Assembly: GCA_011939005.1 (NCBI GenBank)
Contig: GCA_011939005.1_4858.1
DNA from: a phage
Direction: 5' to 3' (one strand)
Length of the DNA: 64,000 nt
Part shown: positions 6,728 to 22,895 of the stretch, piece after piece
Layout: each line of letters begins with the position of its first letter
How positions within the stretch are numbered: the stretch's first letter is position 1
Translations under genes and position numbers: made by a program
Notes under the pieces: generated by a model
The model's database searches: none
Told to the model about the DNA's origin: nothing
Seen by the model: the letters and a program-made list of their open reading frames with translations, nothing else

Positions 6728-6739
6728 GGAGATTTTTGA

Positions 6740-9700: not shown

Positions 9701-10870
9701 ATCACGTCTCCTTATAACCAAGCAACTGGAGGCATCATCTCGACCACGCAGGGCAGTGTTACAAATAAGGTGCTTGAAAATCCGAGGGTAATTAAAAACC
9801 TGACGAGCCAATCTACCGAGTGTTTAGATTTTCTTTCGGTTCATACCGATAGTGAGCTTGCGCCGCTTGGAGATCGTTGGCTTGTACGTTATCGATACAT
9901 TGTTGATACGCAGGTACTGCGCATCTCAATGGTTTCTAAGTTGATAGCCAATCCGCTGGTGCAGGTTTACGAAATGGAATACGACATTCCGTTTGATGCG
10001 ATCGATTACTTTAAAGGTGGGGCGCTAGCCATCCACGTTTCCGGTATTGAAACTGGAGACAACGTGACTATTAACCACGGTTTGATGCAGCCGATCATCT
10101 CAGATGTGGATATAAATCGTTTCCATTATTTACGTTCACTGTTTGAGTCGTATATTGAAAGGACACCAGATAGACAGTCTTCCGGCCACGAGGAGATGAC
10201 AGTAACAACGGTACCTTTTGCGTCATTTGGAGATAACGTTGATCACCCGGTTACGGAATACATCACGATGTCTGCTGCAAGTGAGGGTTATCCGGAACTT
10301 GCACCGAACGGTAAACTCCCAGCGCCGTTTTATAAAGGGCTGCAGAAACGTGGTGCTCCGCTACTTGAGTCGGCTCCTGCCGACTATACGTCTAACGGTG
10401 GTGAATGGAAGTACGGCTTTATGCGGACTTATCGCCCGACTCAAACTGAGCGTTTTGTGTCGGTAAATGGGACAATGCTCTCTAACTACCCCGGATATAT
10501 CGTCGTGGGTAGTGAGAAAATTCCGGGTAATGTTATACCTTTCAGTGCGTCGACAACAGCTGTTCGGATATCCAGGACTCTTGCCCGCACGAAACCGATG
10601 CAGCCAATTCACATCGTGTTCGTGCCTCCGGAAGGTTCTGTGCCGCCGCTGCAAGCGAAGTTCACTATTAATGGTGTGGGTAGTAGTGGTAATCCGATGT
10701 TCGTGATTACTGAAACGACACCGGTGGAACTTCGCACGGGTGGCGAGACGATTCTCATTGAGAAGCGTAATCCATTCCACATCCCCACCAGGACATGGGA
10801 TTGGATTTTACAAACGTTGGATACTGAACGTAGAAACGAAGGCAACAACTCGGGTGAGTGGGCCTCTTAG
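6740..10870 (+). CDS. tail fiber protein (1376 aa) with phage-fibre repeats
   Basis: RBS AAGGAG; shared N-terminal module; repeats of type TSEPGVVTLTDKPSD...AATPSAL and HHHNFADL...GIARYSTN resemble the Phage_fiber_2 repeat. Confidence 0.65.
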   Translation: MKTYPYDPRGVNPECHFIEERIIDSDNPNDRVVMLDHRPFFEGLVVRLAGSSIPLTRGTDYELEYALTPLDDSVTTPVFCGVHLINPKLRGAVVFEGQMLGGTFYSGLIEMLDELVKALNNPTAADWLLLGNRPSLYPATPAAVAWSDMLNKKYVASAVHDVELDAGAANEQIREKLTELKDAVLGLGTEIAAFNYPGHIASTNPHGTTAAQAGAHPVNLKTPDTFLAYGKTLRQLTSEVRALGLQQSDIDKYISKWVSKESKGVFNATISGTRALFRSPAGESEIVFSAEAFTLKSNGSVVLACGYADTTGTVRFMEWKAGINTLRIESTGSALGMDKLTLNGTTLLTTTALMGYQQDPGTGGGTVDPDDNKLYISGVNGITFTGKGSKADPVTGKVTAKPATTSEPGVVTLTDKPSDVVKGQAATPSALLPYEGDLSSYVRKTTLLNNQPMNTGSRTLTKKDLGLDLADNTADVDKPLSDALAEAVTGLSDKGHHHNFADLQIPTASQTVPGIARYSTNLNGLADNRGVTPNVLNDLSKRLDVVAAALANAKEDSVTDFAAVRGKTWTVGSTRTTLAVTDLNYFYLLNGARKEGTVSGSIDLQTTPMFQWFSPDNRMERTWQNAVINIGDGIDFSGFEVAVPETNYGAQIGLTATGMGDLSVVNLLAKTWVRCDTGKLRIWVRGGGAVSVYLDGVIIGAGITEAGYLEATVKEGWKQHCLAFRAECNNSAKAAAIRFTIYDGDYPVAVSDKNTKVARLQEFVKTANGLRHYLYVNMITNALYSRAEPIVDTEGINLERGYIGYIDVPETGLVAGTTYEFETTFDFGMASELKRHFETRLAHGVSNADWSLTDNPKMLPLNKVDPLPKQWLYAYPNSPVSGNHYIRLDRGLFDYKFDSTISSLVFVGAVVSTESASPYCWFTPSNPKEKGMATFEGSVVVDVDLSEAQTVRVRDITLNFMAPSADDKSKTRVLRWSGNRPELNCGFITSPYNQATGGIISTTQGSVTNKVLENPRVIKNLTSQSTECLDFLSVHTDSELAPLGDRWLVRYRYIVDTQVLRISMVSKLIANPLVQVYEMEYDIPFDAIDYFKGGALAIHVSGIETGDNVTINHGLMQPIISDVDINRFHYLRSLFESYIERTPDRQSSGHEEMTVTTVPFASFGDNVDHPVTEYITMSAASEGYPELAPNGKLPAPFYKGLQKRGAPLLESAPADYTSNGGEWKYGFMRTYRPTQTERFVSVNGTMLSNYPGYIVVGSEKIPGNVIPFSASTTAVRISRTLARTKPMQPIHIVFVPPEGSVPPLQAKFTINGVGSSGNPMFVITETTPVELRTGGETILIEKRNPFHIPTRTWDWILQTLDTERRNEGNNSGEWAS

Positions 10871-10965
10871 GACGGACTGCCTACGGGCGGGTAGTCCGTA
10901 GGTAAACCGCCCTTCCGTTATTGGGAGGGCGGTCTCCGTTTTATTACAGATTAGGAGTGTTTGCA
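10871..10965 (+). other. structured intergenic region with nested hairpins between fiber genes
   Basis: Inverted repeats CCTACGG/CCGTAGG and CCGCCC(T)TCC/GGAGGGCGG followed by T-rich tract. Confidence 0.4.
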
Positions 10966-13900
10966 ATGCCGAGAGAAGATGCGGCGCAGTTTAACGGTAC
11001 CCTCAGTACCGCTACTTACCCGAACCGTTATTCGACGGTCATTCCCGTCGAAGCACCGTTCTATCGCATCGGGTTAACGTTAACCGTTACCGATAAAACA
11101 ACCGGAACCAAACGCAAGTTAATAGAAGGTCTTGATTATTTCTTAGGACATTACTTCCAGGAATTAGCCGAGGCTGAGAACGATGCAATATACGGCAGCA
11201 TAATGCTGCTGAACGCCACAGAGGTAGAATACGAGTTATTGTCGGTTGGTCGACAGTATCGCATCCCTGCTTCTGAAATCGGCAAGTATCTGGTTAAGAC
11301 GGATATGAAAGACCCGCGCAACTGCGATTGGTCTGAGCTGATGAAATATCCGCCGATTATCTCGCCAATCGACCCGCCAAAAGATCTCGAAGAAGCCATC
11401 CTTCGCGATGAAATCGTAAAGGCGTTGGAAGATATCCGTCTGGGTATTTTAGAACGTGCCCACGAACTGGATGAGGCTTTTGCGGAAGTTACTGATTTGA
11501 TTTATCAGAACGGTAAAAAGGTGTTTGATGACGAAATGTATCAACACCACCTGATTAAAAATGCACATGGTTACACCTGCGGTGACATTGGCGCTCTCCC
11601 GGTACTCGGCAAAGCCGTAGATGCGACTAAGGCATTCGGACGTACCCTGGCAGAGCTAGTGACGTTAATGTCTACCAGTGGCATCCAACAGAAACACGTT
11701 GACATGCTTCTGGATAATACCCTGGGTGATTTACTGGGCCGTATGCGTGTTCTGAATAACGACGCGATTACGTTCCAAACAACGTCTGGTCACGTTATCA
11801 GCATGAAGGGTGAGAAGTTCATCATCACCTCGACAAAACCGCTGGTATTAAAAGCTGACCAGGATAACAACGAACCGGGTATCGCTACGGAGTTCAGTGC
11901 TGGTCTGAACACGCTTTGGGTTCACTCGGGTAAAGCAGGTGACAAGTGGGGCGCTTATGATGCAGGTGTGCTTGCACCTGTGTATAACAGCGTGTATCTC
12001 GTTACGCCGGATATGGTTAAGATGTACTTGACCTCGGTGAAGATACTTCCAGCAAACGCCTACTTCAAGTCCAGCGACACGTTGAAGATTTACGGCTCTG
12101 GTAAAGAAACAAACAAACTTTACATGAATGCGGAGCTGCCTGCAGCAACCACAACTGTGCAGGGTTTGTTTGCGATTACTAACCTTTCGGCGTCCGCTGC
12201 AGCATCCACAGCGATTTCCCAAAAAGCTGTTACTGACTTGAAGAACAAACTCGACGGATATGTGGACGACACGTATACAGTCAACGGTAAAGGGTTTGTA
12301 TTAGATTCAAACGGGCAGATGCATCTGACCTTAACCGCGGCAGATTTCGGTATTGAGAAGATGAACAATACCGGGCCGCTGGAGAAACCGGTTACTAATG
12401 CGTTGCGCACCGTGCTATCTGGCAAAGCGCTTACAACGCACACCCACACCATTGCCGATCTCGATAACGTGCCGTACGCATCCACGTCTGTTACAGGTTT
12501 GGCTAAACTGTGGGATGCTATTGACACCACAACAGATAAGATGGTTACTTCGCGTCAAGGCTTCTTGCTTGAACAGAAGATTGACACGCTGAATGACAAG
12601 ATTGCTACGTTATTACCGGCGTGGACTGTCGGCGGATCATCGTACGGCAACAATAACTTCTTGCCTATACCTGTCCAGGGGAACTACGAAGGGTATACCA
12701 AAAACCAAACCTGGCAGAAAGGTTTGGCGCGTTACGAGTCTGGTAAGGTTTACTCGCTCCGTAACGGTTCTAACGGGAACCCACCAGGTGACTGGGCTAT
12801 CTATTACGCCTATGCTGATGTGTCGCCAAGCAATACGCTGGAAAATATGCAGCAGACGTCCGTACGCTATCGACCCGCTGGAATGTCGGCGTATCCTGGG
12901 GTGAATCTGGTTGCTATTGTGATTACCGGTACCGATGCAATGATCTGCTTAGGCAGTGACGGTGCGTACTACCTGGTCATCTTCGATGGGACGATTGACC
13001 ATGCAAAACATCATCGTGTTGTTAAAGTGGTGTTGGGTGATTACAAGAACGGTAATGGTGCGGGCACAGTAACGACAGCACCGTGGGCTCCAAACGCTTC
13101 TACAGACGATTTGATTGTTTGTAATGAACGTGTCTACCTGTTGCGTACGGTGCTTACCTCCGGTAACTATTTCGTGAGTATGCGTAGCATCGCACTCAAC
13201 GAACTTAATCTGGGTGGCAGCAACACGTTTGTGGCGGATGCGTTAACAGGCGGGATATTAACGTCGGGTGAAAACGTTTATCTGCGACAGGGACAGAAAC
13301 GTGCACCTTCCGATGCGCTCCCAGCACCAGTTACACAGATCTACGCAGACGCGTTAGCGAAGTGGAACAATGCAACCAACTTTGTACATGGTCCTGAGTG
13401 TAATCACGCGATTGGTGTTGATGGGCTGAGCTTTCGTGTTGGTTTAACTCCAACGGTTTGGTTTGCTTCTACTACAGGGCAAACTATTAACTTTAAACAA
13501 TGGGTGTCAAGCTTTGTTGTCGACTGTAGCGCATTAACGGTAACGCTGGAAGGGGCTGATCGATTCCCTATTGTGGCTGATCTTACCACGGTTCGTTATA
13601 ACGGTGGTACTGAGATTGGGATTCCAAGCCGGAAGTGGGGCGAAGGTCAAGCTAATAACCGAACCTTTGCAACATCGCAAGACAAGTATATCGTTTCGCA
13701 GGGACATGCAGGCGATCGCGACCTAATGCCAATTGTCACGATTACCACGTTAGACGACGGTGTGAGTTGGTACGAGTACCTGTCGTGCGACTACAACTTC
13801 ACTGCCAGAAGTTTTAGTGCGGTAATGTTAAACCAAGGTCGTGGTTCTATCTACGAGCTAGGTATGGCGTATCCACTGACTCTGGGAGCGAATTCCAGAC

Positions 13901-16149
13901 TTATCTGGTTGTCACAGCCACGTTCCCGTTTGGCAATTGAAGTTGAGTTTGATCCGAACACCACTTACTCAGGTAAGGTGGGGTATGGCCCAACTAACAA
14001 TCGTCGTGTAGTAGATTCTATCACGTATGAGAATCTGTCGCAGATGTGCCACATTGTTACACCGGCGTCGCCTGGTACAGAGTTAAACGGCTGGTATTGC
14101 ACAGGGCCAGAAACATTCCCTTACCACAACGTTTCTGGCACTTTCACGATTCATGCCGATCGGTTGACGCTGTCACAGGCCGAATGGGATAAGATGAAGC
14201 AGATGATCATCGACGGTGCACCGGCAGGCGCTGCGAATGGTTATGCTTCGGAATTTATCCTTGCCGCAAATAACGCAGGAAAGGCATTGTTCTCCGTTTG
14301 GTTCATCGGCATTGGTACGGCCACACCGCTCACGTTAGCACAAGTAGCATGTACGCGTACTGTGAACAACGTTAACGTGTTGGATATCTACTACTTTACA
14401 CTGAAACCAACAATCAGCAACGGGCAGGTAACATTCCCCGCAGCGATATTGGCTTTGTTTGACTTCTATAACAACCTCGACTATAGCTTGAACTATGCTA
14501 CGTTGGGTGAGATAACGGGAGGAAAAACACGCCGGCCGGGACAACCTACCTTGGTGTCAGTAGATGGTACTCAGTTCGGGTTGTATCTTCCACACACGTT
14601 AACCTTGCGCCAAATTGGCGACTTGGGTGCGCTTAACTACGCTGTTGGTCTTACGCTGTCTAATGGTACTTGGACGCGTTCTTCTGCTCCACACGGCGTT
14701 GGACGTATGGCACCGTCACACACTCCAGTCAGTCCAGCTTATCTGGCACATCGCGATCAAGTGATGTTACACAACTCATCTCTCGACTACGTCTATTGTG
14801 GTGGTATCGCAACGCCGTCGAGAGATTTTGTCGCGGCTCCTAATTTTAGTGGCCCGACTGAATCGGTTGTCATTGCTGGTGTGGAAACAGCTGAAGGTTG
14901 GCTGGTATATGTGACTGAGGAAGTTGACCTGCGTTTCGGCTCGAGCACTTATAAGCTGCCTACGTGGTATATTGACCTCAGCGCAGCATTTCCAACAAAC
15001 CATCAGAACCGGACATTCTACCTGCACGCCAAGGTAGAAAATGGTACACCGAAGTACGTAATGGACGTGGTTCAACATCCAGACACTGAAACGGAACTCT
15101 ACATCGGGTATGTTAAAACGGGCTCGTCGCGAGTCGTCGAGACTAACGTCGAACATGCTAAGCGATTGGGGGCGGTGAAACAACTGTTGGAACATGCGGC
15201 GGTTGAGAATAAGCATGATGTGGAGGTGGGAAGGGATGCGGCAACGGGCAGACTGGCACCATTGCGTAAAGAAGCGATGGGTCCTTTGTCTATCGATGCT
15301 ACGAAAGGCTATCTGGATAGTCAGTTGCTTTATACCGTATCTGACGCACAGCGTCGCGGTAAACCGATGGTCTCCAAACGTTTCGAAGGCTTGAAAACTT
15401 TGCCGGCGTTTACTCAGGCAAACAAGTCGGGGGCGTTTTGGAAACATCCTACAACAATTGCGACGGTAACGGCCGATGAGAACGGTGAAGCGGCATCGTT
15501 GGGAATGGAGTGGGTGGGTATCCCTACGCCTGCTTTCTCTCCGACCTCAGGAATGATGATAGTGGTGATACAAAGTAAATTCGTCGTCCCAGGTACACCG
15601 GGAGTAGAAACGACCTTTAATGTCAACATCGCCCCATGGGATACGGTAGATAGATTTTTCTACAACGTCGAGGCGGAAGGTAAGGATGTTAACATTGAAG
15701 AAAATCCAGAAGTGCTAATGCCGACACCACATACCGTGTATCACAAACAGCATTCTCTGCCCGCAGGCGTGCCATGTACGTTTACTTTCGCTGCTGTGTT
15801 GAGTTCCCCAGCGCTTGAGATGGCCAACCAGCATATTTGCTCTTGGCTTTTCACGGACGCGGGGGGACTACCAATCACCACCGATCTTTCGGATAGTAAG
15901 ATTCAAATCTTACCATTGGGGGGAGAGACCTACGGCACACCAGTTGTTTTGAACAGCCGTAGCTACACGTTTGTGGATGTGGCGGGTGCAATTCCGGTTG
16001 TTACCACGGGCGCTCAGGGTTTATTCCCACCACCGATCGTGGCGTGGGATGGCGATGATCTTACGTTAACGATTGCGCACGATTGGGTGAACGAGAGAGG
16101 ATGGCAACAGCCTGATATTATCCAGGTCAATCTTATGTTCCGTACCTAA
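10966..16149 (+). CDS. tail fiber protein (about 1727 aa from internal ATG)
   Basis: ORF track starts at an upstream non-ATG codon; ATG at 10966 has RBS TAGGAG; shared N-terminal module; fibre-repeat-like segments (HTHTIADLDNVPYASTSVTGLAKLWDA). Confidence 0.65.
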   Translation: MPREDAAQFNGTLSTATYPNRYSTVIPVEAPFYRIGLTLTVTDKTTGTKRKLIEGLDYFLGHYFQELAEAENDAIYGSIMLLNATEVEYELLSVGRQYRIPASEIGKYLVKTDMKDPRNCDWSELMKYPPIISPIDPPKDLEEAILRDEIVKALEDIRLGILERAHELDEAFAEVTDLIYQNGKKVFDDEMYQHHLIKNAHGYTCGDIGALPVLGKAVDATKAFGRTLAELVTLMSTSGIQQKHVDMLLDNTLGDLLGRMRVLNNDAITFQTTSGHVISMKGEKFIITSTKPLVLKADQDNNEPGIATEFSAGLNTLWVHSGKAGDKWGAYDAGVLAPVYNSVYLVTPDMVKMYLTSVKILPANAYFKSSDTLKIYGSGKETNKLYMNAELPAATTTVQGLFAITNLSASAAASTAISQKAVTDLKNKLDGYVDDTYTVNGKGFVLDSNGQMHLTLTAADFGIEKMNNTGPLEKPVTNALRTVLSGKALTTHTHTIADLDNVPYASTSVTGLAKLWDAIDTTTDKMVTSRQGFLLEQKIDTLNDKIATLLPAWTVGGSSYGNNNFLPIPVQGNYEGYTKNQTWQKGLARYESGKVYSLRNGSNGNPPGDWAIYYAYADVSPSNTLENMQQTSVRYRPAGMSAYPGVNLVAIVITGTDAMICLGSDGAYYLVIFDGTIDHAKHHRVVKVVLGDYKNGNGAGTVTTAPWAPNASTDDLIVCNERVYLLRTVLTSGNYFVSMRSIALNELNLGGSNTFVADALTGGILTSGENVYLRQGQKRAPSDALPAPVTQIYADALAKWNNATNFVHGPECNHAIGVDGLSFRVGLTPTVWFASTTGQTINFKQWVSSFVVDCSALTVTLEGADRFPIVADLTTVRYNGGTEIGIPSRKWGEGQANNRTFATSQDKYIVSQGHAGDRDLMPIVTITTLDDGVSWYEYLSCDYNFTARSFSAVMLNQGRGSIYELGMAYPLTLGANSRLIWLSQPRSRLAIEVEFDPNTTYSGKVGYGPTNNRRVVDSITYENLSQMCHIVTPASPGTELNGWYCTGPETFPYHNVSGTFTIHADRLTLSQAEWDKMKQMIIDGAPAGAANGYASEFILAANNAGKALFSVWFIGIGTATPLTLAQVACTRTVNNVNVLDIYYFTLKPTISNGQVTFPAAILALFDFYNNLDYSLNYATLGEITGGKTRRPGQPTLVSVDGTQFGLYLPHTLTLRQIGDLGALNYAVGLTLSNGTWTRSSAPHGVGRMAPSHTPVSPAYLAHRDQVMLHNSSLDYVYCGGIATPSRDFVAAPNFSGPTESVVIAGVETAEGWLVYVTEEVDLRFGSSTYKLPTWYIDLSAAFPTNHQNRTFYLHAKVENGTPKYVMDVVQHPDTETELYIGYVKTGSSRVVETNVEHAKRLGAVKQLLEHAAVENKHDVEVGRDAATGRLAPLRKEAMGPLSIDATKGYLDSQLLYTVSDAQRRGKPMVSKRFEGLKTLPAFTQANKSGAFWKHPTTIATVTADENGEAASLGMEWVGIPTPAFSPTSGMMIVVIQSKFVVPGTPGVETTFNVNIAPWDTVDRFFYNVEAEGKDVNIEENPEVLMPTPHTVYHKQHSLPAGVPCTFTFAAVLSSPALEMANQHICSWLFTDAGGLPITTDLSDSKIQILPLGGETYGTPVVLNSRSYTFVDVAGAIPVVTTGAQGLFPPPIVAWDGDDLTLTIAHDWVNERGWQQPDIIQVNLMFRT

Positions 16150-16196
16150 CAGATAGCGCTATGGGGCAAGGAAGCCCCAATCAAAGGAGTTTGGCA

Positions 16197-17399
16197 ATGG
16201 CCGAAATCATTTATCAGTACCCGCTCGACCTTACCGGGACATTAACGTCGAACGCCGTTACGCGGCGTATTACGTTAGGTTCTGGTAAAGTTAACCGGGC
16301 TTTTGCATTTCCTGACGGAGCTTTCTACGCGGATACCTTCCGCTTGGCGGCTGCGAATAAACCAGGTGTCTACCCGTACAAACGCGGCACAGACTACGAA
16401 CTGATTTTTGCACATACTGCATATCAGAAAATGACCAAGAACCGCGAAGTGGTCATGGGTGTGGTGGTAACTAACTCGGCCATTCCTACTGATATCGAAG
16501 TCTCTGCGCAAGTCGTTGGTGGTTTTCAGTCCGCGAACGTCGAAGGCATCCGACAAGCGATTGCGTCGTTGAAAATTGAAGACCGCGTGGTGGACTTCAA
16601 GGATCTTCGAAACGTACCCGATACGTTCCCGTCCGCACCGACGTATAAAGACCTTGGCGATATCTACGGTTTTGAGTATATCATTACCGTACTCGCGGGG
16701 ATTAAAGATGCGATTAACTCCGGCTCTGCAGTACAGCTGGAAGAAATTAAAGGTATTCTGGGTGGTCTGAAAAACGACTTCCTCGACGCCTTAAATGCCC
16801 ACATCAACGCCGAAGGTAACGTACACAATCTCGACATTCATCAGGTTAATGGCCTGACGGAGACGGAGATTCGTGCCCTGATTCAAAGTGTACAGACTGC
16901 CATTGACGCCACCATCAAAGATATCGGCGACTTAAGAGCAGCAGACACAGCGTTGGGGCAACGCATCGATGCAATTGTGGCTTCGTTAGCCGCGTGGAAC
17001 GACCAGCTTAACGTGGTTGCTCAAAATTACCAGAAAATGTCGTTAGCATTAGCTAACCTTAATTCTCTGGTGTTGCAATTACAGAAGATGGTTAACGATC
17101 TTCAGTCTGCACTGAATAAAACAAATCAGCGCGTCACGGATCTTGAGAATCAGGGCAAAGACTTCCAACAGCAAATTGATAACCTGCAAGGACAAATCAA
17201 CAGTCTTAAAACTCAGGTTGTAAATAACACCAACGCAATTTCGCAGGCAAACCAGAATCTGGCGAACCATGCGGCTGCGGATAACCCACACCCGAATTAC
17301 CTCCATAAACAGTATGGCGGTGTTGTGCAGGCTGCTGTTCACGTCAACAACAACCTCACCTCGCGCGACGATGTTCAAGCTGAAGCGGGTACTAAGTAA
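16197..17399 (+). CDS. fiber-associated coiled-coil protein (about 400 aa)
   Basis: Internal ATG with RBS AAAGGAG; shared N-terminal module (GTDYEL); long heptad-like Q/N/L-rich C-terminal region. Confidence 0.55.
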   Translation: MAEIIYQYPLDLTGTLTSNAVTRRITLGSGKVNRAFAFPDGAFYADTFRLAAANKPGVYPYKRGTDYELIFAHTAYQKMTKNREVVMGVVVTNSAIPTDIEVSAQVVGGFQSANVEGIRQAIASLKIEDRVVDFKDLRNVPDTFPSAPTYKDLGDIYGFEYIITVLAGIKDAINSGSAVQLEEIKGILGGLKNDFLDALNAHINAEGNVHNLDIHQVNGLTETEIRALIQSVQTAIDATIKDIGDLRAADTALGQRIDAIVASLAAWNDQLNVVAQNYQKMSLALANLNSLVLQLQKMVNDLQSALNKTNQRVTDLENQGKDFQQQIDNLQGQINSLKTQVVNNTNAISQANQNLANHAAADNPHPNYLHKQYGGVVQAAVHVNNNLTSRDDVQAEAGTK

Positions 17400-17410
17400 C
17401 TTGTTTACGA

Positions 17411-17450
17411 GCCGGACTATGTTTATGGACATAGTCCGCTCGTTCTACTT
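17411..17450 (+). terminator. hairpin, possible terminator/attenuator between fiber operon and Cys-peptide operon
   Basis: 9-bp stem CGGACTATG / CATAGTCCG, T-run a few nt downstream. Confidence 0.4.
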
Positions 17451-17464
17451 TTTAAGGAAGCGTA

Positions 17465-17857
17465 ATGGCGATATCTATTAAAGACGTCAGAAACCGCGTC
17501 CAGATAGTCGAAGCTAACATGGCGACAGGCCCCCGCGTCGACGCGCAAGTGGCCTCTAAAGCCCATAATGCGGCAGACCGATTTGGGGGTTGGACGAAAA
17601 CACAGCTAGATTGCGGAGGGACATGTTCTTGGACGTGCTCTAACGGTTGCTCGCATGGCTGTTCGAGCTGTTCAGGAAGCTGTTCTGCTTCTTGTATCGG
17701 TAGCTGTTCTTCGACGTGTGGCGGTAACTGTTCTGGTTGCTCTGGTTGTTCTGGTGGTTGCAGTAGTAGCTGTACCGGTAACTGCACAGGTGGTTGCGGT
17801 GGCTCTTGTTCTTCCAATTGTTCCGGAGCCTGCTCCGGTGGCTGTTCAGGTCGCTAA
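17465..17857 (+). CDS. Cys/Ser/Gly tetrad-repeat small protein A (130 aa); candidate RiPP precursor
   Basis: RBS AAGGAAG; N-terminal ~50 aa non-repetitive leader-like region, then about 21 Cys in C-x3 (sometimes C-x2) spacing built only from C/S/G/T/N/A. Confidence 0.6.
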   Translation: MAISIKDVRNRVQIVEANMATGPRVDAQVASKAHNAADRFGGWTKTQLDCGGTCSWTCSNGCSHGCSSCSGSCSASCIGSCSSTCGGNCSGCSGCSGGCSSSCTGNCTGGCGGSCSSNCSGACSGGCSGR

Positions 17858-17867
17858 GGGGGATTAA

Positions 17868-18272
17868 ATGGCAATTGGATTAAAAGAACTGAATAACCGA
17901 TTAAACACGATCGATGCAAACGCTCTAAAGAATACCACGAATGTGCAAAACTACATTCGCAATAAAGCTACGAATAACGCTGACTTGTTCGCAGGTCAAG
18001 GTCGTTCGCACTACGACTGTGGTGGTACGTGTTCTTTTAGCTGCTCAAGTTGCTCTGGCGGGTGTACTGGGTCTGCGACAGGTGGTTGTGGGTCGACTTG
18101 TTCGGCAAACTGTGTATCAGGCTGTAGCAGCAGCTGCACGGGCTGTAGCTCTTCGTGCTCTGGTGGTTGTAGCGGCACGTGCACAGGCAGCTGTTCTGGG
18201 GGTTGTGGTAAATCCTGCTCCGCAAACTGCTCAGGTGCGTGCTCTGGTGGTTGTTCAGGTCCTAACTCCTAA
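17868..18272 (+). CDS. Cys/Ser/Gly tetrad-repeat small protein B (134 aa); candidate RiPP precursor, paralog of A
   Basis: RBS AAGGGGGA; leader-like N-terminus similar to A (I.LK..RNRL), core starts DCGGTCS and ends CSANCSGACSGGCSG, nearly identical to A. Confidence 0.6.
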   Translation: MAIGLKELNNRLNTIDANALKNTTNVQNYIRNKATNNADLFAGQGRSHYDCGGTCSFSCSSCSGGCTGSATGGCGSTCSANCVSGCSSSCTGCSSSCSGGCSGTCTGSCSGGCGKSCSANCSGACSGGCSGPNS

Positions 18273-18287
18273 CTGACGGAGGCTTAT

Positions 18288-18494
18288 GTGATCAGTCTCA
18301 AGACTATTCGAAACCGTCTCGTTACGGCAGAAGGTTACATTACAACCGCACAGGCAAACAACTATATCGCTAACCAGGGCACCGTGTCGACCACAAATAA
18401 CCTGGCTGGCTTACCGCTTTCTCACTATAACTGTAATGGTGGGTGTAGCTGGTCCTGCAGCGGAAGCTGTAGCCGTGGAGCGGGGAATCGATAA
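18288..18494 (+). CDS. short paralog C (68 aa) with truncated Cys-repeat core
   Basis: Apparent GTG start with GGAGG RBS; leader-like region similar to A/B; core NCNGGCSWSCSGSCS. Confidence 0.45.
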   Translation: MISLKTIRNRLVTAEGYITTAQANNYIANQGTVSTTNNLAGLPLSHYNCNGGCSWSCSGSCSRGAGNR

Positions 18495-18516: not shown

Positions 18517-19404
18517 ATGAAAAACGATTTGCATCTTGCGTATAAAACCACATTCAACCACCCGCTGCATCTATCTTCCCCAGATTCAGTGCGTGCACAT
18601 CTCGCTGACAAAGTCAGACTGATTGCACAGATTCCTGGTGAGTGGCCAAAGGTTCGTGGTCGCTTCTTGACCGACAAGAAGAACTACACCGTAGAAAATA
18701 CGTTTAAGATCCGTGATATGGTTGCAGAGGCCATCGTTATCTTTAACGGCGATGGTAACTCTCGCGGCGTGTTGGTTGACGGTAAGTATTTCTTCAGTGA
18801 AGGGATTCTGAACAACAGTGTCGATTTAGAACTGATGTTTACACCGTTTGACGAACTTGAAGCAAAACCGATGGCGCGCCGTTGGTGGAGTCCGGACTAT
18901 CTGGGCTCGTTCCCTTACTACTTTGTACTGGTACCTGCCGATACGGAAACGTATTTCGACACCGAACCATACATCGATATCGAGGGGTATAAAGAACTCG
19001 GCATCACCCGTTTAGCGGACATGATGGCGTATAGCTATAAGTTCGTGTGGGATAAAAAGCGTTCTGTCTGGTATGCGCTGACTGACGATTTTGAAATCAC
19101 CAAGCGTATTCGTAAGCCGTGGATGCAACACCTGGTTCAAACTCGATATGGGGATTACCCGGCGACAGAAGCGGATTTGAGTAAGCTGGTAAGTTTCCTC
19201 TTAACGAAGGTGGATTTAACGAAAGAAGAAGCAGAAGCTGTTTCTGAGATTCGTGGTCGTTCGGTAACGTTGGCCGATTTGAAACGTCTGAACGAAAGAC
19301 ACGCCGACCTGAACAAAATTTTAGCTGCCTATCACGACCCGATGTTACTGGTGCCTGGCGCTAACGTAGACGAAGATCCTTTATTCGCCATTGATTATAT
19401 TTAA
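18517..19404 (+). CDS. hypothetical protein (295 aa) in Cys-peptide/radical-SAM operon
   Basis: RBS GGAG; co-oriented and tightly spaced with neighbours; no motif recognised. Confidence 0.55.
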   Translation: MKNDLHLAYKTTFNHPLHLSSPDSVRAHLADKVRLIAQIPGEWPKVRGRFLTDKKNYTVENTFKIRDMVAEAIVIFNGDGNSRGVLVDGKYFFSEGILNNSVDLELMFTPFDELEAKPMARRWWSPDYLGSFPYYFVLVPADTETYFDTEPYIDIEGYKELGITRLADMMAYSYKFVWDKKRSVWYALTDDFEITKRIRKPWMQHLVQTRYGDYPATEADLSKLVSFLLTKVDLTKEEAEAVSEIRGRSVTLADLKRLNERHADLNKILAAYHDPMLLVPGANVDEDPLFAIDYI

Positions 19405-19426
19405 AAATATACTGGAGCAACCTGCA

Positions 19427-20341
19427 ATGACAGATCAAGTAGAATCCAGGATCTCGTCTGAACTGTACGACAAACCGTCAATTCTGTCGGTTGTCGCAAC
19501 TTCTAAGTGTAACTTAGACTGTAGCTTCTGTGGAGGGGCTTATTACATGGATAGAGAAGATACTTCTCGTGAGTTTCAACGTGAAGAGATTCTCTCGATT
19601 TTAGAGAAGAATCCGGATATCGGTGAGATTCATTGGACGGGCGGTGAGCCGCTGTTAGCGCAGCGCAAGATTGAAGACTTCGTGAACGAGTTGAAGGAGT
19701 CTCATCCGAACCTCCGTCATCACATGTACACCAACGGTTTAAAGATGCGTAAATCACATCTGCCGTTGCTGAAACAGTTCGACCTTATCTTTGTGTCCAT
19801 TGACGGCTACAAGAAGTCGGAACGTCCGTTTATGAACTTTGTAAACGGTGGTAATCACGAAGCGCTGGAAGTGCTGTACGAGCTGGACAACTATTACACC
19901 TGGGGTGTGATGACGCGTGACCAGTTAGGTGATAAACGCTGGTACGAAGATTTCATCGAGCTGCACCGAGCAATCTATCATTACCGTCCAGGTGGTATGT
20001 CGTTGCTGTTTGATGCGATGATGCCGAAACCGTTATCGCCAGACCACGTCATGAACTTCATGTACGGGTATTGGAAAATACTCGACAATATCGAACGCCT
20101 TAACATGCAGAACGATTCTGAATGTGGGCTTGCGATCAGTAAAATGTTCGATACCGAGTGCAACACGTGCAGTGAAGTGCTGTGGCTTAACGCCGACGGT
20201 ACGCAGGAGCAAATTCAGAACGCCCCAGAGATATTGGAAGTCGGCTGTAATCGCCTGGCGCGTTCTATCGGCGTTGATGCGTATAACTACATCAACCGTG
20301 TAATTTCTGCTAAGCGTAAACGGGCGGCGAACAATGAGTAA
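19427..20341 (+). CDS. radical SAM enzyme (about 304 aa)
   Basis: C-x3-C-x2-C (CNLDCSFC) about 28 aa from the internal ATG start (RBS GGAG); GGEPLL motif; extra C-terminal cysteines (CGLA...CNTC...C) suggest an auxiliary cluster. Confidence 0.75.
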   Translation: MTDQVESRISSELYDKPSILSVVATSKCNLDCSFCGGAYYMDREDTSREFQREEILSILEKNPDIGEIHWTGGEPLLAQRKIEDFVNELKESHPNLRHHMYTNGLKMRKSHLPLLKQFDLIFVSIDGYKKSERPFMNFVNGGNHEALEVLYELDNYYTWGVMTRDQLGDKRWYEDFIELHRAIYHYRPGGMSLLFDAMMPKPLSPDHVMNFMYGYWKILDNIERLNMQNDSECGLAISKMFDTECNTCSEVLWLNADGTQEQIQNAPEILEVGCNRLARSIGVDAYNYINRVISAKRKRAANNE

Positions 20342-21662
20342 TAGCGAACAGCAAATCCAGTACACACCACGCACGTATCAGGTTGTGACTAACCTGTCAT
20401 GTAACCTGGACTGCGAATACTGCTACGAGCGTAAATATCCACGCAATAACAAAGTAGCTGACGTGATTGATTTTATCCACGCTTGCTTCGAGCGCGATAA
20501 AGATATCCCGAACGTTGAAGTCATCATCGATATCATCGGTGGTGAGCCGTTCATGCAGCCTAAACTTCTTTTGGCGGCCTTTGAAACCGCAGAGAAGTTA
20601 TGCGCAGAACACAATCGCCCGTATATGTTCAGTATCTCCACGAACGGTACACTTCTGGACCGTCCGCTGAACAAAGAAATTATCGAGCGCTGGAAAGACA
20701 AACTGTCTATTGGGGTCTCCATCGATGGTTTACCTGAAGTCCATGACAAATATCGTATCTTTACCACGACGCGTGAAGGGTCGTACGAAGCTGCGGTACG
20801 TGGTTACAATTATCTGAAGAGTGTTGGCATCGCTGAACTGGGCGTAAAGGCGACGTTTACGATCGATACATTGCCGCACTATGCCGCCAGCATGAAATCG
20901 TTAATTGACATGTCCGGCGGTGGTACCATTTCTGGTAACGTAACGTACGAAGATATCCTACCGCGCCATATGGCGTTGGATATCGCGAACCAGATGATGG
21001 ACGTGATGGACTACTGGATTGAGAAGGGTCTGCACACCAACCCGCGTAACACGATTACACACATCATCCCGGATGGCCTGAACTTTATGGCAACTTGGGA
21101 CCCGGATTGGCGTGACAAACTCTTACATGACGACTCTGTTCGTCTCGACCCAGAACGCCTGAAACCGTACTGCGGTACGTTGACGCACATGACCTGTCTC
21201 GGCTTTGATCGCAAGATTTACGGTTGTAACCGTTTCATGTCCACGGTAACTTCCCGTTCTGCTGTAGCAGAACTGGTCGGTCGTGAGTTTGTGAGCCTGG
21301 ACGGTGGTAAGCTGTTAGAAGAGATTCAAACGCAGTACACCAACTACCCAGAAACCTGTTTAGGGTGTCCGATGAAACACAGTTGCGGTAGCTGCGCGGC
21401 AGCATCGTACGAAAACGGTGAAGGTACACTGGAAGACCGTAAAGCGTATCATGCCGAGCGTCGTCAGTGTGGTTGGACTACTGCGAAGCTGATGGCGGCA
21501 GAATATTGGTATCAGAAAACTGGTACGACCCGCGCATCAGATTTGCATGATAAATCCATGTGCTATTGTTCACGTTGTGTACGCCAACGTGCTGAAGCAG
21601 AAAAATTACAAAACGGAGCCCAGAATGAAGTCAATACTGATTCACAATTTTACGAAGCGTAA
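20334..21662 (+). CDS. radical SAM enzyme with SPASM-like C-terminal domain (442 aa)
   Basis: CNLDCEYC near N-terminus; C-terminal cysteine cluster C-x2-C-x5-C-x2-C plus upstream Cys; start ATG overlaps stop of the upstream radical-SAM gene (translational coupling). Confidence 0.8.
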   Translation: MSNSEQQIQYTPRTYQVVTNLSCNLDCEYCYERKYPRNNKVADVIDFIHACFERDKDIPNVEVIIDIIGGEPFMQPKLLLAAFETAEKLCAEHNRPYMFSISTNGTLLDRPLNKEIIERWKDKLSIGVSIDGLPEVHDKYRIFTTTREGSYEAAVRGYNYLKSVGIAELGVKATFTIDTLPHYAASMKSLIDMSGGGTISGNVTYEDILPRHMALDIANQMMDVMDYWIEKGLHTNPRNTITHIIPDGLNFMATWDPDWRDKLLHDDSVRLDPERLKPYCGTLTHMTCLGFDRKIYGCNRFMSTVTSRSAVAELVGREFVSLDGGKLLEEIQTQYTNYPETCLGCPMKHSCGSCAAASYENGEGTLEDRKAYHAERRQCGWTTAKLMAAEYWYQKTGTTRASDLHDKSMCYCSRCVRQRAEAEKLQNGAQNEVNTDSQFYEA

Positions 21663-22191
21663 ACTGCACTTGGTCGATCGCTTCCTGCGCAAAAGCAAGC
21701 TGTACAATGTGCACGCAATTGTGGCAGGGGAAGACTTCACTGATGAAATCCAAAGCCTGTTGATTAAATACGGGCTGAATGTGATGATCCCGGTCTACTG
21801 CGTTGAGAAAGGACACGAGTCTGTCGCAGAAATCGAAAAGCGCAATCCTGGCTTTGAGAAGCGATTGCTCGCATACCCACGCCACAAAATCGAACTGCTA
21901 CGTCATTCCATCGATGAAGCCAGTCCTGAAAGTTTAGTGGCTTTGGGCTTGTCTTTCCCGCGGATGCGTATTCGTAACTTACGCTCCAATAATCCGGTCG
22001 ACGCGTATTACACAGAGCGTCAAATCTTTGAAGAACATCTGCTCCCGCAGTTGGAAGAAGAAGAGCAACACAACATTTCGTTGTTGTGGGCCGGTAACCT
22101 CGATCAGGACTTCCAGATGCTGGACTTCGGTTTGTTGTTAGAACTTGGCCTGATTGAGGAGGACGAATGTCTGTTACTGACAAAAGCTTAA
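21625..22191 (+). CDS. hypothetical protein (about 188 aa)
   Basis: Internal ATG with RBS GGAG; overlaps end of upstream gene; same operon. Confidence 0.45.
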   Translation: MKSILIHNFTKRKLHLVDRFLRKSKLYNVHAIVAGEDFTDEIQSLLIKYGLNVMIPVYCVEKGHESVAEIEKRNPGFEKRLLAYPRHKIELLRHSIDEASPESLVALGLSFPRMRIRNLRSNNPVDAYYTERQIFEEHLLPQLEEEEQHNISLLWAGNLDQDFQMLDFGLLLELGLIEEDECLLLTKA

Positions 22192-22838
22192 CGAACGAAG
22201 AGATCCGCGCCCGTTATTTCCAGCGCAATTTGCCGATTGACCGACACGGCAACTTCATGGAACGTATCGGTGCAGAGGATCAAGGCCGTACAGGCTTTTG
22301 CGCTCTGCTCCATTATCATCTCATCGAAGGGATGTCTGATAAAGAAGCCCTGGCACGCATGAAGCTGTATGAGATGTCGGAGATTGAAGCTAACTTCACA
22401 TTGAAACGCACGAAAGAGTTTATTGCTAATGTGCTGGAGATTGACCTCGACGAAATTCGCGGGAATCTAAAATCTACCGCACGTTACATTTACGAAGACG
22501 TGCAGAAGATGCTGTTGGAACTCGACCACCGCTACGAAGATGAGCGCCATGGTTATATCGAGTTTGAAGGTAGTCACTTTCAAGCCGATGAATCGTCGCG
22601 TACCATCCTCGGTCAATACATTCAGGCAGATACCGCACCAGAATACTGGCTCGATACGCTGAATACTAAGCACAGTCCGTTTACAGTAGACCAATGTAAA
22701 GCGTTGTTGGGCGCTATTGTTGCACGCGACCAAGTGTTGCACTCAGCAATGGCAGATAACAAACGCCAAATCCGTGAGTTAGCTGAAAAGCGCGATTACA
22801 CTGGATTAAAAACATTGTCCGAGTCACTCGGCATGTAA
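22167..22838 (+). CDS. hypothetical protein (223 aa), last gene of operon
   Basis: RBS GAGGAGG; followed by strong terminator. Confidence 0.5.
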   Translation: MSVTDKSLTNEEIRARYFQRNLPIDRHGNFMERIGAEDQGRTGFCALLHYHLIEGMSDKEALARMKLYEMSEIEANFTLKRTKEFIANVLEIDLDEIRGNLKSTARYIYEDVQKMLLELDHRYEDERHGYIEFEGSHFQADESSRTILGQYIQADTAPEYWLDTLNTKHSPFTVDQCKALLGAIVARDQVLHSAMADNKRQIRELAEKRDYTGLKTLSESLGM

Positions 22839-22852
22839 GCAAAGAAAATAAA

Positions 22853-22895
22853 GGCCCTACCTCCCCGAAGGGAGGTAGGTACCTTTTATTTATTT
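22853..22895. terminator. bidirectional rho-independent terminator
   Basis: 10-bp stem CCTACCTCCC / GGGAGGTAGG with CGAA loop, T-rich on both sides. Confidence 0.7.

Follow-up and report, generated by a model that had tools for sequence, protein, structure and literature searches.

The 64,000-nucleotide DNA window analysed here, which derives from an SPN3US-like (Seoulvirus) phage of the giant-phage type, carries between positions 17465 and 18494 three tandem ORFs, all on the plus strand, that encode small cysteine-rich proteins (A, B and C). From sequence and gene context, we put at roughly 0.55 the probability that these proteins are short members of the tail-fibre family, and that their C-terminal cysteine ladder is the substrate of an enzyme set encoded downstream. 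Because the same kind of ladder ends tail-fibre proteins of unrelated phages, and because radical SAM (rSAM) genes are its constant neighbours, the ladder is probably a cross-linked part of a fibre rather than a secreted peptide. The features of the region are collected in Table 1.

Table 1. Genes, signals and spurious reading frames in and around the operon, in window coordinates.
Feature	Coordinates	Strand	Description
gp167-type virion fibre protein	16161..17399	+	412 aa, long coiled coil; directly 5' of the trio
Terminator-like hairpin and U-run	17407..17450	+	Between the gp167 stop and the A start; -24.1 kcal/mol, z = -4.7 versus shuffles
Spurious ORF	17452-17817	-	Overlaps the trio
Protein A	17465-17857	+	130 aa; 49-aa N-terminal part, then 81-aa CXXX ladder with 21 Cys
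Spurious ORF	17655-17867	+	Overlaps the trio
Protein B	17868-18272	+	134 aa; N-terminal part with tail-fibre-type motif NNADLFAGQGRSHY, then ladder with 20 Cys
Spurious ORF	17941-18276	+	Overlaps the trio
Spurious ORF	18011-18184	-	Overlaps the trio
Protein C	18288-18494	+	68 aa; GTG start; N-terminal part and cap motif (CNGGCSWSCSGSC) like A and B; only 4 Cys
Accessory protein	18517..19404	+	295 aa; SPN3US gp165; specific to the module
Small radical SAM enzyme	19391..20341	+	SPN3US gp164; CNLDCSFC motif, without SPASM; probable true start ATG 19427
Radical SAM/SPASM enzyme	20334..21662	+	442 aa; SPN3US gp163; CNLDCEYC at residue 23, seven conserved C-terminal Cys
gp162-type protein	21547..22191	+	phrog_7988; true start probably near 21625
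gp161-type protein, DUF4376	22167..22838	+	PF14301 (5e-9); weak match to tail phrog_2837; last gene of the operon
Bidirectional terminator	22856..22879	.	Perfect 10-bp, GC-rich; closes the plus-strand tail operon

A preliminary description of this DNA had drawn attention to C-x3 repeats in three small proteins, two of which share the starts and ends of their cores, and both observations stand. All 21 Cys of A lie within its C-terminal 81 residues, with 17 of the 20 Cys-Cys spacings equal to 4 and the other three equal to 3; B has 20 Cys within its C-terminal 84 residues, 16 of the 19 spacings being 4; and the 4 Cys of C are spaced by 4, 4 and 4 (3/3). The ladders of A and B begin with DCGGTCSW/F, end with CSxNCSGACSGGCSG, and are built almost entirely of S, G, C, T, N and A in units of C-[S/T]-G-[G/S/T], with no Asp or Glu at all in these cores or in those of their orthologues. 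Scanned in all six frames, the window reached at least 11 Cys per 40 aa only in stretches of A and B, the runner-up having 7. A separate Cys-dense spot at 8776-8803 was dropped, as it is out of frame with respect to a real 1376-aa gene.

A Shine-Dalgarno-like sequence can be read 5' of each of the ORFs A, B and C (AAGGAAG, AAGGGGGA and GGAGG), and all three products match phrog_6085 (A 1.5e-40, B 3e-41, C 2.7e-24). Each also displays the tandem Cys-Xaa-Xaa-Xaa repeat of TIGR04114 (CXXX target repeat) proteins, with weak model scores of 18.9, 17.1 and 13.7 bits, respectively, all below the cutoff of 20. A local copy of Pfam-A returned no match for A, B or C, PF27846 being present only in precomputed annotations; no metallothionein family of Pfam or NCBIfam was matched, and BLAST of the three N-terminal parts against all window ORFs found nothing beyond one another. 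An AlphaFold2 monomer of B, built from a 9-sequence alignment, had a pLDDT of 41.7 with the ladder unstructured, and was uninformative. Tryptic peptides from the N-terminal parts include VQIVEANMATGPR and VDAQVASK for A, and LNTIDANALK and NTTNVQNYIR for B.

A, B and C are genuine genes, read in the Cys frame, with purifying selection on every Cys. Comparison with the orthologues of Erwinia phages Huxley, Phobos and Wellington places nucleotide differences mainly at codon position 3 (30, 21 and 78 at positions 1, 2 and 3 for A versus Huxley). Across six A and B comparisons Cys is retained at 121 of 122 aligned positions (20-21 of 21 in A, and 19-20 of the 19-20 aligned in B), with frequent TGT/TGC swaps at the retained codons. 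The three genes are conserved across four jumbo-phage genera, and over those genera and a related locus, L011, A and B keep 20-23 Cys, a constancy that fits the expectation for a length-constrained structural element. The C orthologues of Phobos and Wellington have only 2 Cys left. The repeat is weak in the DNA itself, Tandem Repeats Finder (TRF) giving short degenerate arrays only, and TRF together with DNA alignment revealed no recent tandem duplication; therefore the CXXX periodicity reflects a constraint on the protein.

The same tract gives rise to overlapping spurious ORFs on both strands, as had been anticipated, four of which were located (Table 1), and some of these are the ORFs annotated in public records: SPN3US gp166 is a +1-frame ORF, and Huxley gp176/177 and Phobos gp167/168 lie on the minus strand. 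Such GenBank assignments would be expected if the region were a low-complexity tract with its true gene in another frame or strand and the Cys frame a by-product. That explanation is highly improbable in the face of the excess of substitutions at codon position 3 of the Cys frame, the near-100% retention of Cys through synonymous changes, the ribosome-binding sites and start codons of the genes themselves, the phrog_6085 matches, and the occurrence of the ladder domain, in frame, at the end of larger proteins of unrelated phages. A reading in the wrong frame or on the wrong strand was ruled out by the codon-position and Cys-retention comparison. The preliminary description had also raised the possibility that the repeats belong to another frame or to a larger structural gene; in the window they are in the right frame and in separate small genes, but the homologous domain does lie within a larger structural gene in other phages. 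The SPN3US, Huxley and Phobos reference records systematically mis-annotate or miss A-C, and the exact sequence of B is absent from a catalogue of 5.8 billion proteins, so that the genes have been invisible to proteomic and comparative work.

The trio is embedded in a tail operon, flanked by gp167-170-type virion proteins, which lie upstream, and by DUF4376 and tail-chaperone genes. The gene preceding A encodes a protein with coiled-coil Pfam matches that belongs to phrog_2163 ('virion structural protein', 5e-108), and mass spectrometry has placed its SPN3US counterpart gp167 (PMC5694885 Suppl. Table 1), and gp167-170 collectively, among the non-head proteins of the virion (PMC5694885). In the virion proteome tables of SPN3US (PMC5694885), gp167-173 appear and none of gp161-166 does; as the annotation searched was one without A-C, in which gp166 is the wrong-frame ORF, the tables are uninformative about A-C. 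This position in a tail or baseplate module recurs, with an equal slot occupied in loci L008, L009, L011, L040, L092 and L093. Homologues of the gp167-type protein and of the gp162-type protein (2e-8) adjoin the module in L011, the latter directly 3' of the SPASM enzyme. Searches of Pfam, NCBIfam and PHROG detected no protease and no exporter or transporter family among the operon genes; nor does the operon include an immunity gene, or its vicinity a metallochaperone or metal-transport gene.

Among NCBIfam models the 442-aa enzyme is matched best by TIGR04115, 'radical SAM peptide maturase, CXXX-repeat target family' (125.6 bits, 3e-36; cutoff 350), and second best by the PapB model NF047865 (113.6 bits, 1e-32; cutoff 340), with TIGR03974 (SCIFF/CteB) at 53.9 bits against a cutoff of 425. 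By sequence its closest solved relative is CteB (5wgg, 3e-10), and anSME is also among the solved relatives. It combines a CxxxCxxC motif (CNLDCEYC, residues 23-30) with SPASM-type cysteines, C280, C298, C342, C345, C351, C354 and C379 being invariant in a 21-sequence alignment. With its rSAM motif as early as residue 23, the enzyme has no room for an N-terminal RRE. The small rSAM enzyme (316 aa; PF04055, 1e-15) is matched by NCBIfam models over its N-terminal core only, and weakly by many families, including cyclophane formers; it is conserved with the module, and L092 has it as a fusion with the SPASM enzyme. Matches of the larger enzyme to HxsB (4.8e-21) and of the smaller to HxsC (6e-12) are far below cutoffs.

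Relatives of the rSAM were examined in 84 loci, 80 of them from a viral-contig scan (L012-L091) and four found earlier (L008-L011), the viral loci totalling 185. Such a relative is encoded in every one of the 84, and in 80 it is accompanied by an ORF with a CXXX run in the same orientation. The tail neighbourhood was inspected in eight loci. In unrelated phages the junction motif and CXXX ladder form the C-terminal end of tail-fibre-like proteins of 200-570 aa, and the homology to fibres runs through the phrog_6085 domain, which is C-terminal in proteins whose N-termini match tail or tail-fibre PHROGs. In a Deferribacter prophage (L008) a GpJ-like gene is followed by a 302-aa fibre, then by a homologue of the accessory protein and a pair of rSAM genes; the fibre is composed of HxHDxRYYTExE repeats, whose HxHDxRYY units resemble phage-tail repeats, and ends in NADQLGGQAGSYYRCSDCSWTC followed by 28 Cys. 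On a 213-kb contig (L009) a 568-aa CXXX protein, with a precomputed Pfam assignment to PF27846 (tSAM_targ_Cxxx_rpt) and a TIGR04114 score of 20.7 bits that passes the cutoff, follows a T4 gp13-like gene. In a gut-phage clade (L040) the module is immediately preceded by genes for the hub, assembly and wedge of the baseplate, and both partners score higher, the enzyme at 308.9 bits on TIGR04115 and the target at 31.2 bits on TIGR04114, above the cutoff of 20. The L011 module adjoins Peptidase_S74 fibres.

A T7-like locus (L092) presents T7_gp14, core proteins and a Phage_T7_tail gene with a gp17 N-terminal domain, and then a CXXX protein of about 206 aa, followed by a homologue of the accessory protein and a double rSAM fusion. 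A paralogue in this locus shares the N-terminal domain of the CXXX protein and bears a collagen-like GXY repeat in place of the ladder, an exchange that suggests that the ladder stands where a trimeric rod would otherwise be. The larger fibre-like proteins of L008, L009 and L092 each lie beside the same enzyme set. Other N-termini point the same way: that of the L085 CXXX protein is a tail-protein domain (3e-11), and among three fibre-like relatives of B of ~210 aa (P0119, P0120 and P0127) those of P0127 (6e-7) and P0119 (2e-4) match tail-fibre phrog_5073. The tail-fibre-type motif N-x-x-L-x-G-x5-Y, carried by the ~50-aa N-terminal part, also occurs in S74 fibres. All of the tail-linked substrates examined in the two-rSAM clade carry an aromatic residue after their second Cys. 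One related locus, L025, differs: the enzyme set stands in a non-tail neighbourhood, its neighbour is a 97-aa protein that has no more than 3 Cys at its C-terminal end, and Met occupies the position of the aromatic residue in this candidate.

These arrangements can be accommodated in a single scheme. The enzyme set would consist of the 295-aa protein in an accessory or docking role, the SPASM-less rSAM, and the rSAM/SPASM enzyme. The last of these would introduce covalent cross-links from the Cys sulfurs post-translationally in the reducing cytoplasm, most likely as thioethers, the products of its nearest characterised relatives PapB, CteB and QhpD. The second rSAM may act with the invariant cap C-x-G-x-C-S-[W/F/Y] in a distinct, initial or nucleating modification. 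The product would be a rigid rod or tip, resistant to reduction and to proteases, that stays joined to its N-terminal part with no cleavage or export, and it would then be built into or onto the fibre apparatus, possibly with gp167. Extended to many tailed phages, the proposal is that the distal part of a fibre is a ladder of 4 to >60 Cys, cross-linked by rSAM enzymes (for example as thioethers) into a rod or tip, a generalisation that we offer tentatively and at somewhat less than even odds. With the same reserve, its range may take in enterobacterial jumbo myoviruses, T7-like podoviruses, prophages with a lambda-type GpJ, and abundant phage contigs from metagenomes, human-faecal clones included.

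Several observations run counter to this fibre reading, namely that a ~50-aa N-terminal part and a Cys-rich core are also typical of a RiPP precursor, that the Asp/Glu acceptors of PapB are missing from the cores, that the AlphaFold2 monomer of B leaves the ladder unstructured, and that L025 lies outside a tail module. The trio could instead be a classical RiPP system, in which ~50-aa leaders are removed by a host or other protease from an rSAM-cross-linked core, and the free peptide serves as a bacteriocin, a signal, or a host-manipulating factor at lysis. Besides the leader-plus-core layout and the L025 variant, such a system would account for three paralogous precursors with a common conserved N-terminal part, and for an enzyme whose nearest families (TIGR04115, PapB, SCIFF/CteB) are RiPP maturases. 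We consider it unlikely, because the genes sit within a tail operon that extends from virion fibre genes to the DUF4376 protein and in which no leader protease, exporter or immunity gene was found, and because the ladder is C-terminal in the 200-570-aa fibre-like proteins, where its domain is fused to tail-fibre-like N-terminal regions of 150-450 aa. Moreover, the supposed leader itself bears the tail-fibre-type motif that is present in S74 fibres. Thus the likeness to RiPP cores and metallothioneins drawn in the preliminary description is sound in so far as these are Cys-rich targets beside rSAM genes, but neither a free RiPP core nor a peptide of metallothionein type accounts best for the data.

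Rows of Cys, probably trimeric, might also coordinate metal or an Fe-S cluster in the manner of the T4 gp37 HxH rows, with the rSAM enzymes loading the metal or cluster or serving otherwise. The extreme density of Cys among small side chains would suit such a ladder, as would the metal-stabilised fibre tips known in T4 and the TAT-type signals, typical of exported cofactor-containing proteins, on some bacterial CXXX proteins (P0126, P0131 and P0139). Its probability is nonetheless low, given that the ladder is almost always accompanied by a SPASM enzyme of the peptide-maturase type (80 of 84 loci), as is seen for covalently modified targets, that the neighbourhood is without metallochaperone or metal-transport genes, and that no Pfam metallothionein family was matched. 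Similarly doubtful is a family of alternatives in which the enzymes perform other radical chemistry (formylglycine, dehydroalanine, a Cys-aromatic or cyclophane linkage at the CSW cap, or epimerisation), or in which A-C are non-virion scaffolds or chaperones for gp167-170. In its favour are the solved relative anSME, the weak matches of the small rSAM to cyclophane formers among many families, the aromatic residue after the second Cys in the tail-linked substrates, and the absence of gp161-165 from virions, so that the neighbourhood includes assembly factors. The anSME and cyclophane matches, however, are confined to the generic rSAM core and far below cutoffs, and the cores contain no C/S-x-P/A-x-R sulfatase motif.

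If the fibre reading is correct, A-C and their relatives would provide the first biological role for the long-orphan CXXX-repeat/TIGR04115 family, so far defined by genome context, and would represent a new class of virion structural protein, one that is cross-linked by enzymes. The action of RiPP-type maturases on virion structural proteins would constitute a new principle of phage assembly, in which irreversible cross-links could stand in for disulfides, which cannot form in the cytoplasm. The substrate, rich in S, T and G, is poor in acceptors, so the enzymes may perform unexplored radical chemistry of use for peptide stapling. Fibre stability, host-range engineering and phage therapy are also touched upon, SPN3US-like phages being therapeutic candidates.

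Among the closest known systems is that of the TIGR04114 targets, the TIGR04117 paralogue family, TIGR04115 and PF27846, which likewise combines tandem Cys-Xaa3 repeats, with near-invariant Cys and variable X, and an adjacent rSAM/SPASM enzyme without an N-terminal RRE domain. To our knowledge this family has a bioinformatic definition only, with no maturase chemistry or biological role known, and we found no literature linking CXXX, radical SAM, RiPP or SPN3US gp163-166 with phage tails or tail fibres. The window proteins differ in scoring under the curated cutoffs for both enzyme and targets, and the SPN3US clade adds a SPASM-less rSAM, the 295-aa accessory protein and the cap motif C-x-G-x-C-S-W, in a module embedded among tail-fibre genes. 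PapB/PapA (freyrasin) resembles the present system in its short SPASM enzyme without RRE and its substrate with many regularly spaced Cys. PapB joins Cys sulfur to the C-beta of Asp in C-X3-D motifs, with one cross-link per Cys (PMC10739248). Here, by contrast, the NF047865 score is far below cutoff, Cys-X3-Asp/Glu motifs are absent, so that the acceptor must differ from that of PapB, and the substrate is a fibre-type protein of 130-570 aa rather than a small exported peptide.

A precedent for a retained product is QhpD, an rSAM/SPASM enzyme that places several Cys thioethers in a protein kept as a structural subunit of a larger complex (PMC11002830), and its family TIGR03906 is among the matches of related phage enzymes. 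The sequence similarity is distant only, and QhpC carries 4 cross-links to Asp, Glu or Trp and belongs to periplasmic enzyme biology, with no virion, whereas the ladders here have 20-60 Cys. SCIFF/CteB shares a Cys-rich substrate and SPASM auxiliary clusters as well as the closest solved structure, and differs in its score, in the N-terminal RRE that the 442-aa enzyme does not possess, and in its ~45-aa six-Cys peptide, as compared to precursors of 68-134 aa with 4-21 Cys. HxsABCD has the same four-part organisation: HxsB is its rSAM/SPASM enzyme and HxsC its second, SPASM-less rSAM, and they are joined by an accessory protein and a target with a short-period repeat. Its repeat is HXS rather than CXXX, its accessory protein is unrelated, and the phage-tail context is particular to the present module. 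Among fibre tips, T4 gp37 offers in its iron needle, where HxH rows bind iron, a comparable regular row of ligand-type side chains, and gp37, Peptidase_S74 and the Pam3 fibre chaperone all illustrate a distal fibre element with adjacent dedicated helpers that are not part of the virion. Unlike the intramolecular chaperones of Peptidase_S74 and the fibre chaperone of Pam3, the helpers encoded beside the cysteine ladder are radical enzymes.

Three small open reading frames in tandem (A, B and C) fill positions 17465-18494 of the plus strand, each preceded by a good Shine-Dalgarno sequence, in a region where the Seoulvirus jumbo phages Escherichia phage EC001, Salmonella phage SPN3US and Proteus phage 7 are about 98-99% identical to the window. 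The very dense repeat of a cysteine at every fourth residue that a preliminary description had reported in three small proteins is indeed there (Table), its density in A and B peaking at 11 cysteines per 40 aa versus at most 7 elsewhere in a six-frame translation of the 64-kb window. When the three proteins are combined with their orthologues and relatives, the consensus unit is C-[S/T]-G-[G/S/T]; non-cysteine residues of their cores are nearly all S, G, T, N or A, and Asp and Glu are absent from the A and B cores and from those of their orthologues. The cysteine number of A and B stays at 20-23 in four phage genera and in a distant contig (L011), with freely varying residues in between, and this constancy suggests a length ruler. 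The repeat is weak at the DNA level across the A-C region, and modelling B as a monomer with AF2 yielded no usable structure.

Features of the cysteine-ladder region of the tail operon
Feature	Position	Strand	Description
Hairpin	17407-17450		Strong; between gp167 stop and A start; -24 kcal/mol, z = -4.7; then U-run, UUCUACUUUUU
A	17465-17857	+	130 aa; 21 Cys within C-terminal 81 residues, spacings 17x4 and 3x3
B	17868-18272	+	134 aa; 20 Cys within C-terminal 84 residues
C	18288-18494	+	68 aa; GTG start; 4 Cys
3' gene 1			295-aa accessory protein; phrog_8030
3' gene 2			rSAM of 304-316 aa, without SPASM domain
3' gene 3			442-aa rSAM/SPASM enzyme
3' gene 4			phrog_7988 protein
3' gene 5			DUF4376 protein
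Terminator	22856-22879	both	Perfect 10-bp GC-rich palindrome, T-runs either side

The A, B and C genes are real and constrained in their cysteines. The trio is kept in the Erwinia phages Huxley (Machinavirus), Phobos (Derbicusvirus) and Wellington (Wellingtonvirus), and in pairwise codon alignments substitutions fall mainly at codon position 3 (30/21/78 for A against Huxley), while 121 of 122 aligned cysteines in A and B are kept despite many TGT/TGC swaps. Because of this position-3 excess and cysteine retention, alternative frames are excluded and the cysteine frame stands; the same evidence rules out a non-coding artefact. The repeat also spawns spurious reading frames on both strands, as was first supposed, and some have entered public records: SPN3US gp166 is a Val/Ala-rich ORF in the wrong, +1 frame (17941-18276 in window coordinates; records L001 and L007), and Huxley gp176/177 and Phobos gp167/168 are Pro/Glu/Gln-rich ORFs on the wrong, minus strand (window 17452-17817; L003 and L004). 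A and C are absent from the SPN3US records; the EC001 record annotates all three genes correctly. The exact B sequence has no entry in a catalogue of 5.8 billion proteins, and two of the top catalogue matches are frameshift-fused gene calls. In several Salmonella phage SPFM genomes (P0081-P0084, P0166, P0169, P0171, P0177, P0182) the radical SAM (rSAM) and accessory calls match just 6-32% of query length, probably because sequencing errors have left frameshifts in the assemblies.

The trio lies in the tail operon; on its 5' side are genes for three giant proteins, of 1237, 1376 and 1742 aa, and for gp167, a coiled-coil protein of 412 aa. SPN3US virions contain gp167-170, none of which was assigned to the head (PMC5694885, Suppl. 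Table 1). Proteins gp161-166 were not detected among SPN3US virion proteins in that study (PMC5694885), and A-C could not have been, since they were missing from its search database. The palindrome downstream, a bidirectional terminator, parts the plus-strand tail operon from convergent minus-strand genes, and the hairpin ahead of A may be an attenuating terminator or mRNA-stability element that lowers expression of A-C and the enzymes. Residues 20-33 of the gp168-type giant fibre-cluster protein (10921-16149, 1742 aa; listed with a TTG start, from which the true start may differ) read DAAQFNGTLSTATY, resembling the N-x-x-L-x-G-x5-Y motif found ahead of cysteine ladders.

Two rSAM genes lie 3' of the trio. 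The best NCBIfam match of the SPASM enzyme is TIGR04115, 'radical SAM peptide maturase, CXXX-repeat target family' (3e-36, 125.6 bits versus a cutoff of 350), followed by the PapB ranthipeptide maturase (113.6 bits versus 340); the target-repeat model TIGR04114 scores A, B and C at 18.9, 17.1 and 13.7 bits, all below its cutoff of 20. The nearest solved relative of the SPASM enzyme by sequence is the SCIFF thioether synthase CteB (3e-10), with anSME next. Seven of its C-terminal cysteines never vary among 21 homologues, which fits SPASM auxiliary clusters, and the enzyme has no N-terminal RRE domain, because the rSAM motif already begins at residue 23. Conservation in the small rSAM is limited to CxxxCxxC, GGEPL and a partial C-x(1-2)-C...G-C.

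The SPASM enzyme has distant homologues, at 32-47% identity, that are likewise encoded in tail modules of phages and accompanied by the same partners, and there the CXXX domain is common to the C-termini of tail-fibre-like proteins. In a Deferribacter abyssi prophage (L008), a GpJ-like gene and genes for 147-aa and 316-aa proteins precede a 302-aa fibre with HxHDxRYYTExE repeats, which ends in '...KATNADQLGGQAGSYYRCSDCSWTCSSSCTGSC...' with 28 ladder cysteines; behind it come an accessory-protein homologue of 250 aa (2e-9), a small rSAM (1e-14) and a SPASM rSAM. The 213-kb contig L009/L010 encodes, 3' of a T4 gp13-like gene, a protein of 568 aa with precomputed Pfam family PF27846 (tSAM_targ_Cxxx_rpt), which ends in 'NAVTLGGQPPDFYTCGGSCSWSC...' with 28 cysteines and precedes two rSAM genes; unlike the A and B cores, the L008 and L009 fibre cores hold 2-3 Asp/Glu. 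In L011 a pair of small CXXX proteins of the SPN3US-like kind is accompanied by the accessory protein and both rSAMs, with a gp167 homologue and Peptidase_S74 tail fibres alongside. In the T7-like contig L092 (module 6632-10336), T7_gp14, core proteins and a Phage_T7_tail (gp17 N-terminal domain) gene are followed by a 118-aa protein and the 206-aa CXXX protein P0127, whose common N-terminal domain matches tail-fibre phrog_5073 (6e-7); the 118-aa paralogue has a collagen-like GXY repeat in place of the ladder. An accessory homologue (1.7e-5) comes next, and then the two rSAMs, fused in this lineage into one 668-aa protein. Ahead of the ladder, B and the fibres just described carry the motif N-x-x-L-x-G-x5-[Y/F], which also occurs within the L011 S74 fibres.

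An IMG/VR scan with the SPASM-enzyme alignment gave 185 confirmed loci, of which 80 were examined together with L008-L011. The CXXX domain is nearly always paired with an rSAM/SPASM enzyme: at 80 of these 84 loci a CXXX-run ORF, with up to 63 cysteines in 370 aa, lies no more than a few kb away on the same strand. An SPN3US tier has the accessory protein, the second rSAM and a cap motif, C-x-G-x-C-S-[W/F/Y]; a second, larger tier, mostly of metagenome-derived viral contigs, has one enzyme, 24-27% identical to that of SPN3US and scoring 309 bits on TIGR04115. The 63-cysteine protein (L040) occupies a tail-fibre slot, 3' of baseplate hub, assembly and wedge genes, and matches phrog_6085 (1e-23), the PHROG common to A-C; the N-terminal part of another CXXX protein (L085) is a tail-protein domain (3e-11), and L093 has tail-fibre genes upstream. 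Members of the accessory family are rare, forming 49 representative clusters in a set of 1.84 billion proteins. Some CXXX-repeat proteins of bacteria (P0126, P0131, P0139) bear signal peptides of the twin-arginine type (SRREFFKKAAK...) and belong to a different, probably exported, branch of the repeat family.

We infer that the cysteine ladder is the substrate of the neighbouring enzymes, which, by analogy with PapB, CteB and QhpD, would make covalent cross-links from cysteine sulfur; the A and B cores offer no Asp or Glu as acceptor. The cross-linked ladder would then be a rigid fibre element, which fits both the constant ladder length across genera and the collagen-like paralogue in L092. 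QhpD provides a precedent in which the modified protein remains a structural subunit (PMC11002830).

The preliminary description had likened the repeats to RiPP cores or metallothionein-like peptides, and the association with rSAM genes and the cysteine richness stand. A classical RiPP, its leader cleaved off, would suit the leader-plus-core appearance of the proteins and an exceptional locus (L025, a 279-kb contig, 7883-11074), where a protein of 97 aa that ends RGCESCAMGCHGPQ, with just three C-terminal cysteines, accompanies the accessory protein and both rSAMs, and where the upstream neighbour is no tail gene but encodes a helicase-like protein of 909 aa that appears to carry an inserted (intein-like) segment. 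Such a free peptide is nevertheless unlikely given the tail context, the fusion of the ladder into larger fibre-like proteins, and an operon in which no protease or exporter was found. The description had also allowed for a larger structural gene; the repeats of the window are separate small genes, and elsewhere the domain does end larger fibre-like proteins. That the ladder binds metal seems slightly less probable than the RiPP reading, and we give similarly little weight to some other radical chemistry or a role in assembly alone.

There is a substantial chance that the module, read as a fibre element cross-linked by its own enzymes, reveals the biological role of the whole CXXX family, for which we know of no chemistry or role. 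A literature search, which may miss subscription-only papers, found nothing linking the CXXX system or SPN3US gp163-166 to tail fibres. The pairing of CXXX-repeat target and maturase, already catalogued in NCBIfam and Pfam, is what the window shares with the TIGR04115 system; what differs, and is new here, is a four-component form embedded in tail-fibre genes.
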